Below, in pieces: positions 18,421-22,761 of a stretch of DNA of 22,761 bases. Every line of letters starts with the position of its first letter. Position 1 is the stretch's first letter. The DNA comes from Acidobacteriota bacterium. GTDB lineage: Bacteria > Acidobacteriota > UBA4820 > DSQY01. The notes beneath the pieces are model-generated. The model ran no database searches and was not told the DNA's origin. It worked only from the letters and a program-made list of their open reading frames with translations. The stretch covers positions 1 to 22,761 of the forward strand of contig JBMFSH010000037.1 in assembly GCA_049967655.1 (NCBI GenBank). Reading direction: 5' to 3'. Position numbers and translations under genes: made by a program.

Positions 18421-18463
18421 GCGGGGAGGGAGTGGCCCTTCCCGCCGAAGAGAAAACTCTTTT
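18421..18463 (+). terminator. Possible terminator after the smc operon
   Basis: GCGGGGAGGG-AGTGG-CCCTTCCCGC stem (one G-U pair), then a small AAGAG-AAAA-CTCTT hairpin ending in a short T run. Confidence 0.35.
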
Positions 18464-18533
18464 CCCCGTTGAAGGACAACTTGTCTCGAAGGCAAAGCCC
18501 TTTGAATGGGGGAATTTGGGCGTAGGAGGGCCC

Positions 18534-18940
18534 TTGCGGAAGAGCCTCACCGTTCCCCGAGAGCTGGCCGGCTCCCGCCTGGATCAGGCCCTGGCCGTCC
18601 TGGCGGAGGGCCTGAGCCGCCGGGCCGCCCGCGCCCTCATCGAGCGGGGAGCCGTCTACCTGGACGGGCGGCGCTGCCGGACGGCCTCGCGCGCCGTGAC
18701 CGAGGGCGCCAGCATCGCGGTGGAGGAGGGGCCGGCCCCGCCGCCCGAGGCGCCCGATCTGACCGTTCTGTGGCGGGCGTGCCCATCCTCGGGGACGTCA
18801 AGTACGGCCGTCCCGACCCGCGCTTCCACCGCCCCCTCCTCCACTCCCGCCGCTTGATCTTCCCTTTGCCGGGAGGCGGCGAGGCGGCGGTGGAGGCGCC
18901 CCTGCCGGCCGACATGGTGACCCTGCCCGGGAAGAAGTGA
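18534..18940 (+). pseudogene. RluA/RluD-family pseudouridine synthase, internally deleted and frameshifted
   Basis: TTG start behind AGGAGG. S4 domain (RLDQALA...LSRRAARALIERGAVYLDG) up to LTVLW, then in another frame the family C-terminus GVPILGDVKYG...LLHSRRLIFP...EAPLPADM. No KPxG, HRLD or TGRTHQIR motif in any frame. Confidence 0.85.
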
Positions 18941-18977: not shown

Positions 18978-19146
18978 GTTCCCCTCCGCCCCCGTTCTCC
19001 CGCCGGCGCTCACCACGGACCGGCTCACCTCCATGGGCGCCATCGGGGGCGTGGCCCCATCAGCCGGTGCAGCCGATAGCCGGTGAGAAATCCGGGCCAA
19101 GGCCGCCCGGGGCCGGCGGGCGGACCGGCCTTCCGCCCCGGGGCTG

Positions 19147-19155
19147 TGCTACCAT
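19147..19155 (+). promoter_or_regulatory. Extended -10 promoter (TGnTACCAT) for the FHA-cyclase gene
   Basis: TGCTACCAT 17 nt before ATG 19172. Confidence 0.5.
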
Positions 19156-19171
19156 CGGAGCGGAGTCCACC

Positions 19172-19978
19172 ATGCACCGGCTGACCTTTATCCTGAACGG
19201 GGAGCCCCGGACCTTCATCCTCGAGAGGGAGCGCGTCTGCCTGGGCCGGCAGGCGGAGAACGACCTCGCCATTCCCGACCACACCGTCTCCAGGCGCCAC
19301 GCCGAGATCCTCAAGACCGCCGAGGGCTGGAGGATCGCCGATCTGGGCTCGCGCAACGGCACGGCCGTGAACGGGGAGCCGGTCCAAGAGTCCCCCCTCA
19401 ACCCCGGCGACGAGATCACCCTGGGCACCTTCGCCCTCCGCTTCGAGGAGGAGGCGGAGGAGTCGGTCCGGCTGGAGGCGGACGGCCTGGAGGGGGTGCT
19501 GGAGAAGGTCATGGAGGTGATCTTCGCCAACGGCGGCACCCTGGACAAGTTCATCGGCGACGCCATCATGGCCATCTTCGGCGCGCCCGTCCTCACCACC
19601 GACCACGCCCACCGCGCCGTGCGGTGCGCCCTGGGCATGCGCGAGGCCCTCGGGCGGCTGAACGCCGAGAACCCCGACGGCCCCCCGCTCCTCTTCCGCA
19701 TCGGCATCAACACGGGCCCCGTGGTGGCCGGCGACATCGGGAGCGTGCGGCGCATGGACTACACGGTCCTGGGCGCCGCGGTGAACGCCGCCTCCCGCCT
19801 CGAATCGGAGGTGGCCAAGCCCGGCCAGATCGTGGTGGGGGAGGCGACCTACCGCCAGCTCAAGTACGCCTTCGCCTTCCACAAGGCCGGCAAGGTCCCC
19901 GTGAAGGGGCTCTCCCGGCCCCTGGCGGTCTACGAGGTGAAGGGCGAGCTGGGCGTGGACGACGTCCTCAAGCTCTGA
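19172..19978 (+). CDS. FHA domain plus N-terminally incomplete class III adenylate cyclase domain (268 aa; possible in-frame deletion product)
   Basis: FHA motifs LGR, VSRRHA, DLGSRNGT; cyclase motifs GTLDKFIGDAIMA, RIGINTGPVVAG, DYTVLG, VNAASRLE, VKG. The first-Asp motif (FxDIxGFT) is absent. Confidence 0.85.
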   Translation: MHRLTFILNGEPRTFILERERVCLGRQAENDLAIPDHTVSRRHAEILKTAEGWRIADLGSRNGTAVNGEPVQESPLNPGDEITLGTFALRFEEEAEESVRLEADGLEGVLEKVMEVIFANGGTLDKFIGDAIMAIFGAPVLTTDHAHRAVRCALGMREALGRLNAENPDGPPLLFRIGINTGPVVAGDIGSVRRMDYTVLGAAVNAASRLESEVAKPGQIVVGEATYRQLKYAFAFHKAGKVPVKGLSRPLAVYEVKGELGVDDVLKL

Positions 19979-20005
19979 CGGGAAGAGGCGACGGCCCGGT
20001 TTCGC

Positions 20006-20692
20006 TCAGGCCTGCTCGCCCTCGCCTTGGGGGGGCGGCGGCGCGGGCGCGGCCTCGGCCTGCCGGCGGTGGTGGCGCCTCTCCTTGAGCACCTCCACCA
20101 CGCCGGGGACGATGGAGATCACGATCACCAGGACGATGATCAGGTGGAGGTAGCGGTCCACGCCGGGCAGCCGGCCCAGGAAGTAGCCCGCCGAGCTCAT
20201 GGCGACGATCCAGCCGATGCCGCCGAAGACGTTGAAGGAGAGGAAGCGGCGGTAGTGCATCCGCCCCACCCCAGCCACCACGGGCGCGAAGGTGCGGATG
20301 ATGGGGATGAAGCGCGCCAGCACGATGGTCTTGCCGCCGTACTTCTCGTAGAAGCGCTGGGCCCTTAGGAGGTGCTCGGGGTTGAAGAGGAGCGATTTGG
20401 GGCGCTTGAAGATCATGGGCCCCGCCTTGTGGCCGATGGCGTAGCCCGTGCTGTCGCCCGCGATGGCCGCCGCCGAGAGCAGCAGGAAGAGGTGCCAGAG
20501 GTTCAGGTAGCCCTGCCCCGCCAGGATCCCCGCCGTCACCAGGAGCGAGTCCCCCGGCAGGAAGAATCCGATCAGCAGCCCCGTCTCCGAGAAGACGATG
20601 GCGAAGAGCACGGGGTAGCTGCCCCACAGGATGAGGGCCTTCAGCTTCTCCGGGTCGTGCAGAAGCGCCAGCGCTTCCTTGAGCAGCTCCAT
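20006..20692 (-). CDS. DedA family (VTT domain) membrane protein
   Basis: FSETGLLIGFFLPGDSLLVTAG, AIAGDSTGYAIG, ARFIPIIRTFAPVVAG; start at ATG 20692 behind GGAGGGGAG. Confidence 0.95.
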   Translation of the reverse strand: MELLKEALALLHDPEKLKALILWGSYPVLFAIVFSETGLLIGFFLPGDSLLVTAGILAGQGYLNLWHLFLLLSAAAIAGDSTGYAIGHKAGPMIFKRPKSLLFNPEHLLRAQRFYEKYGGKTIVLARFIPIIRTFAPVVAGVGRMHYRRFLSFNVFGGIGWIVAMSSAGYFLGRLPGVDRYLHLIIVLVIVISIVPGVVEVLKERRHHRRQAEAAPAPPPPQGEGEQA

Positions 20693-20734
20693 CGGGATCT
20701 CCCCTCCGTCCGCGCCGAAGCGTCCGGCGCCTGC

Positions 20735-20763
20735 ATACTGCCCGAAAGGCTGGGGGCTGTCAA
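20735..20763 (-). promoter_or_regulatory. Candidate sigma70 promoter for the DedA gene
   Basis: TTGACA-N17-CAGTAT on the minus strand; perfect -35, weak -10. Confidence 0.45.
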
Positions 20764-20829
20764 TCGCACGGCACGCGCACCCCCGCGTCGGATCGTTGCT
20801 CCTCTCACCTCCCGCGGCCCCGGGAGGCG

Positions 20830-20859
20830 TTGACCCCCGCACGCCGCCGGGCCTATAGT
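20830..20859 (+). promoter_or_regulatory. sigma70-type promoter facing the integrase
   Basis: TTGACC-N18-TATAGT; both hexamers 5/6 consensus, conspicuous in GC-rich DNA. Confidence 0.6.
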
Positions 20860-21094
20860 CAATCCGACGCACCACAACCGGAGGGGATGGGGCATGGGAG
20901 CCTCACTATCGGAACGCACAGCCGGCCGCGGGTAGGCCGCTCCGCCCACGGGCGGAGGCCGCCGGCATCCGCACCACACCCCCTCCGCGTCCCATCGGAG
21001 GCCGCCTCACGGCCAAGGGCGGAGTCTGCGCCCCGCCTCGATCTCCAAATCGGTAATTCGTGAAGTCCCCCGCCGGGGGCGTGCGGGGGGGCCC

Positions 21095-21199
21095 GGGAGC
21101 TGAACGGTCTCCGACGGGAGCTGAACGGCCTCCGACGGGAGCGGAACGGTCTTCGACGGGAGTCGAACGGCCTCCGGCAGGAGCTGAACGTTCTCCGAC
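21095..21199. repeat. Tandem repeat, 5 x 21 bp, consensus GGGAGCTGAACGGYCTCCGAC
   Basis: Units start at 21095, 21116, 21137, 21158 and 21179; no spacers; a degenerate sixth unit follows. Confidence 0.95.
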
Positions 21200-21300
21200 G
21201 AGAGTTTGGCGTTTCCCTGAGGGGCGCCGGCGGACGAAAGGCGCCGCCGCGCGCAAGATCGTGAATGAGTGGGGGGAGGTACCCGAGGGAGGAGAAACCG

Positions 21301-22443
21301 ATGGTTCGCGAGACCGACCCGAGAGGATACCCGTCCGGGCCAGCCGCGCATGGCCCCGAGCCGGCCGCCATGGTATTGGACCCGGCGGGAGCCTACGAGG
21401 CCGGCGGCGGCAAGAAGCTCATGGAGTGCGTGCGCGAGGCGATCCGCGCGCGGCACTATAGCTACCGCACGGAGCAGACCTACTGCCAATGGATCCGGCG
21501 CTACATCCTCTTCTTCGGCAAGCGGCATCCGCTCGACATGGGCGAAGGGGAGATCAACACCTTCCTCTCCCACCTCGCCACGAAGGGCAGGGTCGCTGCA
21601 TCGACCCAGAACCAGGCCCTCTCGGCCCTGCTCTTCCTCTACCGTGAGGTGCTGGGACGGGAGGCCGGCCAGCTCGAAGGGGTAGTCCGCGCCAAACGCC
21701 CCCAGCACCTACCGATTGTGCTCAGCCGCAACGAGGTCCAGCTGGTCCTGTCCGCCATGGAGGGGGTCCACAAGCTGATGGCGGCCCTCTTGTACGGCTC
21801 AGGGCTTCGGCTCCTGGAGGGTCTCGGGCTCAGGGTCAAGGACCTCGACTTCGACCGGGGCGAGCTCACCGTCAGGGGAGGCAAGGGGAACAAGGACCGG
21901 GTCACCGTCCTTCCTGCCGCGCTCCGCGGCGAGCTTCAAGCCCACCTTCAGCGGGTGCGCGAGGTCTACGAAAGGGACCTTGCCTCCAACAGCTCCGGGG
22001 TCCCCCTGCCCGGCGGGCTGGCCCGCAAGTACCCCAACGCGCCCAGTGAGTGGGGCTGGTACTGGGTCTTCCCCTCGTCCACCTTGTGCAAGGATCCCCG
22101 CACCGGCTTCCTCGTGAGGTACCATGCCCACGAGTCGGGGCTCCAGAAGGCGGTCGGCCGCGCGGCGAGGAAGGCGAAGATCGCCAAGCACGTGACTCCC
22201 CACATCTTCCGCCACTGCTTCGCCACCCACCTGCTCGAACGAGGGCAGGACATACGTACCGTCCAGGAGCTTCTCGGTCATAGCGACGTAAAGACCACCA
22301 TGATCTACACCCACGCGCTCAACCGGGGCGGCCGGGGAGTCCTGAGCCCGGCCGACGACCTGGGTAGCGCGCTTTTGTTCGAGGGGACGTCCACGAATGC
22401 GGTGGACGCTCCCACTGACGAGAAGAATGGGCACCGGGACTGA
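21301..22443 (+). CDS. intI: Integron integrase (IntI-family tyrosine recombinase, 380 aa)
   Basis: [46 protein letters not shown], IntI-specific insert [51 protein letters not shown] before ATG 21301. Confidence 0.96.
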
Positions 22444-22457
22444 AGCCGGCGGCATAA

Positions 22458-22485
22458 CAGCGCGGGCTATCAGCGCGGACTATCA
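22458..22485. repeat. 13-bp tandem duplication just after the intI stop
   Basis: CAGCGCGGGCTAT CAGCGCGGACTAT CA (12/13 identical). Confidence 0.75.
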
Positions 22486-22548
22486 TGCCGGAGTGGAATA
22501 TGGTAAGTTTTGCAGGGGATAGCTGATGATCGGAGTCCGGTTTCTAAG

Positions 22549-22623
22549 GCAGGATGGGCGGAAACCTAGCAGGATAGGCCGAAAAACGACGTGCCTATTC
22601 CGTCGGTCTAATATGCGTTAGCC
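22549..22623 (+). mobile_element. Putative attI site on the 3' side of intI (crossover G/TT at 22617/22618)
   Basis: GGTCTAATATGC-GTTAGCC resembles the attI simple site (CTAA...GTT core). Two upstream direct repeats GCAGGATGGGCGGAAA (22549-22564) and GCAGGATAGGCCGAAA (22569-22584). A lower-GC ORF starts 47 nt after the core. Confidence 0.55.
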
Positions 22624-22663
22624 TCCCGAACCACCGCATGACGAAACCGACAGGTAGGACTTG

Positions 22664-22761
22664 ATGGCACCAAAGACAAAGACCACGACTAAACGACCGA
22701 TTGAATCTTACGAGCATCGGGACAAAGAGCGCGTCAACAACCCGCCGGTGGGGTTGGTGAC
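22664..22761 (+). CDS. N-terminus of a probable site-specific DNA methyltransferase (type III R-M Mod-like); runs off the window edge
   Basis: Not in the ORF track. Hand translation MAPKTKTTTKRPIESYEHRDKERVNNPPVGLV; RBS-like AGGTAGGA. The IExYxH..K.R.NNPPVGLV pattern is one I recognise from the N-terminus of large Mod-type adenine methyltransferases. Only 32 codons are visible. Confidence 0.65.
   Translation, partial: MAPKTKTTTKRPIESYEHRDKERVNNPPVGLV

Follow-up and report, generated by a model that had tools for sequence, protein, structure and literature searches.

The window, by which we mean the whole 22,761-nt stretch of DNA analyzed, is the complete contig C37 of a 3.14-Mb Acidobacteriota assembly of 147 contigs with a completeness of 99.3%; the nearest named record is an Acidobacteria assembly, at 74% identity. 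Near its right-hand end it carries an integron integrase gene (intI), flanked on one side by a dedA-family gene and on the other by a putative attI site and the beginning of an ORF. The features are as follows, with a slash marking the predicted crossover point.

20006-20692, reverse strand: dedA-family housekeeping gene (PRK10847), the genus-fixed 5' flank of the integron, divergent from intI
20830-20859, forward strand: sigma-70-like promoter TTGACC-18-TATAGT, candidate Pint
21018-21060, forward strand: bipartite motif GGCGGAG-N30-AATTCG, integron-associated, located with a matrix
21094-21204, forward strand: 21-bp tandem repeat of 5.3 copies in the intI leader (TRF score 152)
21301-22443, forward strand: intI, 380 aa (392 aa from the ATG at 21265), pointing toward attI, assigned by TIGR02249 and alignment to VchIntIA
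22458-22485, forward strand: attI-proximal 13-bp direct repeat of 2.2 copies (TRF)
22501-22509, forward strand: extended -10 element TG-G-TAAGTT, candidate Pc
22608-22621, forward strand: predicted attI core CTAA-TATGC-G/TTAG, crossover between 22617 and 22618, placed by conservation, junction test and strain breakpoint
22638-22664, forward strand: mini-ORF of 8 codons, with its TGA overlapping the following ATG (TGATG), read from the sequence
22664-22761, forward strand: first inserted ORF, cut by the contig end after 32 codons, N-terminus or remnant of a Mod-like methyltransferase

The intI frame (21265 or 21301 to 22443) is free of internal stops, and its product scored 443.2 bits against the TIGR02249 integron integrase model (cut-off 265), with the XerC and XerD models scoring under their own cut-offs. 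Residues 49-364 align with VchIntIA (PDB 2a3v, E 2e-89); the alignment shows the IntI-specific insertion, and R182, K207, H313, R316, H339 and Y348 (392-aa numbering) make up the R-K-H-R-H-Y set. The intact IntI proposed in the initial annotation was therefore borne out. The ATG at 21301, which is preceded by an AGGAG ribosome site, appears likelier to be the start than that at 21265.

The 5' side had been described as holding only dedA and no cassettes. The dedA gene is there, although its product scored 203 bits against NCBIfam PRK10847, under the cut-off of 236, and neither an attI nor an attC was found 5' of intI in the window; an attI in that position had been named beforehand as evidence against a reverse integron. 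The gap between the two genes did not turn out to be empty, as it is occupied by the sigma-70-like promoter, the conserved motif and the 21-bp tandem repeat. A promoter scan of 20650-22761 returned 20830-20859 as the sole site (0.2 +/- 0.4 in shuffled sequences), and this promoter is also kept in two relatives, G003 and G001. The tandem repeat was not seen in G003, G017 or G009 and has no special fold (z -0.44), and an Rfam scan of 20000-22761 gave four matches, all far under their gathering scores. The repeat also differs among close strains.

Two further genes of the window depart from their counterparts. An ORF with FHA and adenylate/guanylate cyclase domains at 19067-19978 is about 1 kb shorter than in G003 and G001, the missing stretch falling between 19500 and 19507 with a 54-bp repeat match flanking the gap, and this is either an internal deletion or an assembly collapse. 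At 18432-18940 lies a pseudouridine synthase gene, presumably of the RluA family, that seems shortened and frameshifted; G003 carries about 450 bp extra between positions corresponding to 18775 and 18772.

The putative attI lies 174 bp 3' of the intI stop. The window has a single CTAA-N5-GTTAG, and the 3.14-Mb genome has three. The 13-mer TAATATGCGTTAG is identical in G003, of the same genus, and in G017, 165-180 bp past the intI stop, and the DNA before it aligns poorly and that after it is unrelated among the three. Variants of the pattern are present at the G011, G010 and G022 loci, giving a family-wide core of CTAA-T(A/T)(T/A)GC-G/TTAG. An attI has been characterized by L and R boxes 4-5 bp apart and a G/TT crossover (in the portion of PMC12614218 consulted); the site in the window has this spacing and a G/TT, and adjoins intI. 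Folding of the attI region was not unusually stable (z -0.35, 0.87 and -0.44), as is expected because attI is a double-stranded site.

Since the first bases of any cassette that has entered attI have to be complementary to the R'' of its own attC, the GTT used at each locus can be recognized by a junction test, in which the 12 bases from each GTT were compared with the reverse complement of the R'' region of the first attC. The candidate attI GTT was the best of 11 in G003 (11/12), the best of 22 in G011 (10/12) and the best of 13 in G022 (9/12); it tied for best among 13 in G030 (8/12) and was second-best of 23 in G017 (9/12). The test did not point to attI in G009, G010 and G023, and we regard these three as uninformative, the first attC having been overlooked or given a wrong start. 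Locus L115 provided an internal comparison, as its attI region is present twice at a distance of 7,168 bp, with a 3' remnant of intI preceding the second copy. Similarity between the copies ends directly after GTTAGG, and an ORF and an attC come next in both cases.

On the reverse strand of L115 the two copies lie at 833 and 8001 in flipped coordinates, putting the second attI 7.2 kb into the array, and L099 is alike. These second sites are tandem duplicated or acquired platforms.

In a search of public sequencing runs, none contained more than 0.11 of the window's words. Four runs were also compared with the window. Three of them, from three studies, yielded contigs that are 96-99% alike and whose match to the window ends at 22621, 22621 and 22623. 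The contig from run X2 continues for 560 unlike letters past this point at a depth of 4.8, and those from X4 and X9 end two letters and one letter after 22621, respectively, which fits branching of the assembly graph without demonstrating a different cassette. Positions 22632-22700 were without cover in the compared runs, which is not counted as evidence by itself. In independent runs the 3' end of intI through GTTAG is present on single contigs.

Taken together, conservation, the junction test, the L115 duplicate and the strain breakpoint place the crossover at 22617/22618. It is thus very probable, as judged by comparison of sequences, that CTAA-TATGC-G/TTAG at 22608-22621 is attI and that the platform is real. 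The attI-like core had been proposed at this place, together with a core/accessory boundary and a break in synteny at 22617/22618, and both proposals held: close strains and relatives diverge at GTTAG. The 13-bp direct repeat at 22458-22485 may be an accessory integrase site, by analogy with DR1 and DR2 of attI1.

To see what lies behind attI where contigs extend further, attC hairpins of relatives were found heuristically and 27 of them aligned to build a covariance model, which was run over the window and 16 relatives' loci; the 27 match by construction, and G011 and G023 lie outside the training set. Of 24 other family genomes, 13 carry IntI. Eight of these 13 have attCs 3' of intI and co-oriented with it, none has attCs 5' of intI, and in the other five the contig runs no more than about 1 kb past the intI stop. 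Within the stretches covered, the counts were 2 in G003, 3 in G009, 9 in G010, 1 in G011, 5 in G017, 1 in G020, 14 in G022 and 3 in G023, and the attCs are mostly 100-130 bp in length. On a single contig of G022 (C24:81820-123204) about 60 co-oriented, closely similar attCs stand behind a frameshifted intI. A pattern scan of metagenomes returned one contig only, with a g3-type platform, and G034, of another family in the same phylum, has the canonical layout.

The window shows the reverse layout itself, with intI on the same strand as the first ORF and attI 3' of intI. The layout claimed for the locus therefore stands, and is seen in relatives; its supposed rarity does not hold within this lineage, where it is the only layout found in the family.

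First inserts of two relatives look defense-like on inspection: G020 (L104:7794-9442) has a DNA adenine methylase and a partner gene, followed by an IS, and G009 (L101:10808-12226) has a P-loop ATPase. About 300 bp 5' of intI in G011 (L102), half of an attC-like sequence follows a glyoxalase-like gene on the intI strand, below threshold.

The drop in GC noted 3' of intI is real, but it does not start at the GTT: GC is 0.67 in intI and 0.55 both from 22444 to 22617 and from 22618 to the end, so that the drop begins already at the intI stop. Only 1.8% of 21,011 stretches of 144 nt across the genome have GC as low as the stretch past the crossover. The co-oriented ORF reported there is present, starting at 22664 on the intI strand and running off the contig after 32 codons. 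The overlap of the mini-ORF with its start codon could possibly allow translational coupling or may be due to chance.

The first ORF was matched in 6 of 300 other genomes of the phylum and by a plasmid entry, 'DNA methylase, putative'. The homologue in G233 is 875 aa long and is followed by a 928-aa endonuclease of the BPTD_3080 family (NF046055, 1089 bits). Long Mod-like and Res-like genes are found at three of the six homologue loci (G233, G009 and G223), short remnants with the same starting peptide at two (G178 and G296) and a 53-codon frame at one. The ORF thus looks like the N-terminal part, or else what is left, of a methyltransferase that works with a BPTD_3080-family endonuclease; such restriction-modification (R-M) systems are labeled 'type III-like'. 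The assembly holds neither a continuation of the methyltransferase nor a partner endonuclease. No other contig shares an end overlap of at least 15 bp with C37, and the small contigs of low GC proved to be rRNA or unrelated. The short N-terminus, the mixed homologue loci and the absence of a continuation together indicate that the insert at attI may be a large R-M cassette, a cassette remnant or DNA that is not a cassette.

The attC model matched nowhere in the window, in agreement with the initial annotation, and no attC is visible because the contig ends 144 bp after the crossover. Thus, of the candidate reverse chromosomal integron, the platform is confirmed by the intact IntI, attI and the relatives' arrays, and an array is not seen here, where the contig ends. 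The DNA past the crossover is rather probably an attC-bounded cassette, although we are less sure of this than of the platform.

A single attC match was found in the whole assembly (39.9 bits, E 1.6e-5), on contig C29 and unlinked to intI, and it does not beat shuffled sequences in folding (z -0.86). This solitary attC-like site (C29:32519-32604, L114) lies after an acyl-CoA dehydrogenase gene; behind it come a truncated ORF resembling a methyltransferase and a transposase-like remnant. Scattered through the genome is also a repeat, roughly 200 bp long and constant at one end (52 regex matches, for example on C5, C6, C7, C12 and C20). It stands at 42 of 170 ends of contigs longer than 3 kb, and copies lie close to the intI locus of G003 and G001. 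It is MITE- or REP-like and probably a main cause of the assembly breaks. It resembles an attC arm but was rejected as an attC, having no score with the attC model.

These data suggest, with a probability that we put at roughly 0.8, that the locus is a sedentary chromosomal integron of inverted layout, resident beside dedA in an Acidobacteriota genus. The features of a sedentary integron that can be seen are a fixed core-gene flank, a lack of flanking mobility genes and sharing within the genus, with the 5' flank being the one contained in the window. The DNA after the crossover is variable between strains, and by sequence comparison the relatives' attC-bounded cassettes lie on the intI strand.

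The strongest alternative, which we consider unlikely, is that the platform is a genuine reverse one but is In0-like in this genome, an R-M island or remnant having entered attI non-canonically, through an attG-like or secondary site, or having replaced the array, without an attC. The attC content of the assembly would agree with this, its one unlinked site comparing with 5, 7 and 15 matches in three genomes of the same genus, as would the homologues of the first ORF, which lie outside arrays at all six loci with no attC or intI match near any of them. A full R-M system would also be unusually large for a cassette, since a Mod and Res pair would take at least 6 kb, compared with a spacing of 0.3-1 kb in the relatives' arrays. 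Against this, the foreign DNA begins exactly at G/TTAG, in cassette orientation and with a 46-bp leader resembling those of relatives' first cassettes; GTTAGCC is the R' of a family attC; and the first insert of G020 is likewise a methylase with a partner gene. The contig moreover stops within the ORF, and binning of assemblies commonly loses array contigs of low GC.

Much less probable is a canonical integron whose parts were reordered by rearrangement, or a contig end made chimeric in assembly. The site lies only 144 bp from the end of a contig in a metagenome-type assembly, yet G003 has the same order of dedA, promoter, intI and attI with attCs downstream, the independent runs span the junction from intI to GTTAG, and nothing attI- or attC-like stands 5' of intI. 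Least credible of all is a phage- or ICE-type tyrosine recombinase at an island edge with a chance GTT motif since, although R-M genes often lie within integrase-flanked islands and the bare motif occurs three times in the genome, TIGR02249 is far over its cut-off with Xer and other models under theirs, the IntI-specific insertion is present, and attC arrays lie behind the orthologues, with a first R'' that matches this GTT.

In the inverted sedentary integron that we favor, events at the locus would follow established biochemistry, in which recombination by IntI takes place at G/TT between attI, as double-stranded DNA, and an attC folded from its bottom strand (as described in parts of PMC12614218 and PMC8352920). 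The intI gene would be transcribed from the promoter at 20830-20859, and its product would join attI to a folded bottom-strand attC at G/TT, so that each new cassette lands directly behind intI. The first cassette would owe its expression to read-through or to a weak promoter close to 22501. No terminator-like site was found in 20650-22761, and read-through could therefore express the first cassette; the promoter scan likewise showed no sigma-70 consensus between intI and attI, having missed the extended -10 element at 22501-22509, which aligns with TG-G-TAAAAT of G017 and is weakly suggested to be the cassette promoter Pc. The newest insert would be an R-M methyltransferase gene or its remnant, with a closing attC, from approximately GGCTAAC, past the contig end.

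The order dedA, promoter, intI, attI is common to the window's genome (G000) and G003, with attCs downstream in the latter. In G001 the dedA gene, the promoter and the upstream motif are kept and intI is reduced to a 3' scrap, and a contig in run X1 shows a similar intI deletion. G002 gave no dedA match, and in other genera intI is found at other loci. Comparison of G000 with G003 showed dedA to be 96.5% identical and the intI cores 74.3%; the corresponding values were 79.0% and 79.5% for G000 and G017, and 92.8% and 69.6% for G017 and G009. A tree forcing the IntIs of G000 and G003 together was rejected (AU p 0.02, 14 rows), and over its first 100 bp intI agrees with the genus (70 vs 43 matches), with the rest of the gene and the attI region leaning to G017. 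The mismatch between dedA and intI identities, the rejected tree and the split signal all point to replacement of the intI body, which was apparently swapped between genera at fixed loci.

A quick tree of 96 IntI rows, with a very long outgroup and no Treponema sequence among the rows, was used unrooted only. Labeling of 80 more distant loci by attC matches gave 7 reverse, 18 canonical and 55 unlabeled. A single branch of 67 rows (SH-aLRT 92) takes in every row labeled canonical and none labeled reverse. The window lies outside this branch as sister to G017 (99) and, with the root being unreliable, groups with reverse-layout loci of Acidobacteriota, Planctomycetota, Omnitrophota and a Vulcanococcus.

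A bipartite motif was found beside intI across the family. A matrix trained on ten relatives' sites, with the window excluded, scored 42.1 bits at 21018-21060, and the next best site in the genome reached 20.8, so that the motif is nearly exclusive to the integron. The consensus is GGCGGAG-N29/30-AATTCR across the window and L099, L100, L101, L105-L108, L110, L013 and L131, and it is conserved between genera whose intI genes are 63-80% alike. In genera g1 and g3 the motif lies on the 5' side of intI, and in g4 on the 3' side, ahead of a small accessory gene; no copy was seen at the g5 and g6 loci. The accessory gene (for example L106:10628-11218 in G010) lies between intI and attI in 5 of 25 family genomes, all of g4 (G010, G006, G014, G018 and G022), and one query did not find it in the window's genome.

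With regard to LexA/SOS control, neither a canonical LexA gene nor a box at Pint was found: the best TIGR00498 match in the genome scored 31 bits (cut-off 111), and six LexA-box patterns had no match 5' of intI. In soil and freshwater integrons, loss of LexA control and frequent integrase decay are presented as the norm in the part of PMC3108266 consulted. The sole LexA-like match in the genome (C32:8025-8555, L154) is an XRE-HTH and S24-type repressor beside a DUF72-like gene, and it could be a non-canonical SOS regulator.

We offer, as a tentative and on balance doubtful extension, that the integron belongs to a LexA-less lineage and is controlled by its own cis-element, GGCGGAG-N29/30-AATTCR, with intI, attI and the first cassettes forming one unit under an SOS-independent switch. 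The 3' block, consisting of the catalytic domain, the cognate attI and the array, would then be exchanged between genera through recombination within intI, with the promoter and leader of the host retained.

The reverse layout is not new. The integrons of the Treponema denticola type are, like that of the window, chromosomal with intI directed toward attI and in the cassette direction (PMC3607928 and PMC4889954), and in T. brennaborense the attI R box is described as a GTTAG about 200 bp past intI, as here. They differ in that the present host belongs to the Acidobacteriota and in the family attCs of mostly 100-130 bp. The layout had been attributed to a minority clade with co-oriented intI; such a group exists, but 'clade' overstates it because it is reported to be paraphyletic in the relevant passage of Cury et al. 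2016 (PMC4889954). Inverted IntIs are a sub-clade of the soil/freshwater clade according to a passage of Ghaly et al. 2021 (PMC8352920), the consulted portion of which also shows that chromosomal integrons of Acidobacteria and taxon-specific attC models already exist, and gives neither their orientation nor an attI sequence for Acidobacteria. A recent preprint treats the reverse layout, in the part seen, as the standard second one (bioRxiv 2025.02.12.637893). Archaeal integrons (extracts of Ghaly et al. 2022, PMC9668308, and its preprint) also have a putative attI 3' of intI with a canonical insertion point; they come from a different domain.

Inverted-integrase integrons are a recognized category in IntegronFinder-based work, and the layout alone adds little. 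The ilvD-linked integron of Xanthomonas has the canonical layout. It resembles that of the window in being flanked by a fixed core gene, and in that intI often decays and has been exchanged, with ilvD 97.1% and intI 68.2% identical compared with 96.5% for dedA and 74.3% for intI here (excerpts of PMC12444791); in the window's family, by contrast, the exchanged 3' part of intI is contiguous with attI and the array. A term search of the available text of PMC8618304 and PMC2426708 returned no statement on integron orientation. Among titles and the beginnings of abstracts we found nothing describing reverse integrons of this family or the bipartite motif. The integron is therefore of an already described type, and only the upstream motif hints at anything more unusual.

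Conservation of attI sites is poor and few have been defined; here comparison has placed the core to the base, so that a reverse-layout IntI/attI pair becomes directly testable. The lineage also offers arrays of up to about 60 cassettes, with defense-type genes in first position, and a candidate non-LexA control element. If the motif does control the integron, this would address the question, raised in the part of PMC3108266 consulted, of how the integrases of soil and freshwater bacteria are restrained without LexA.
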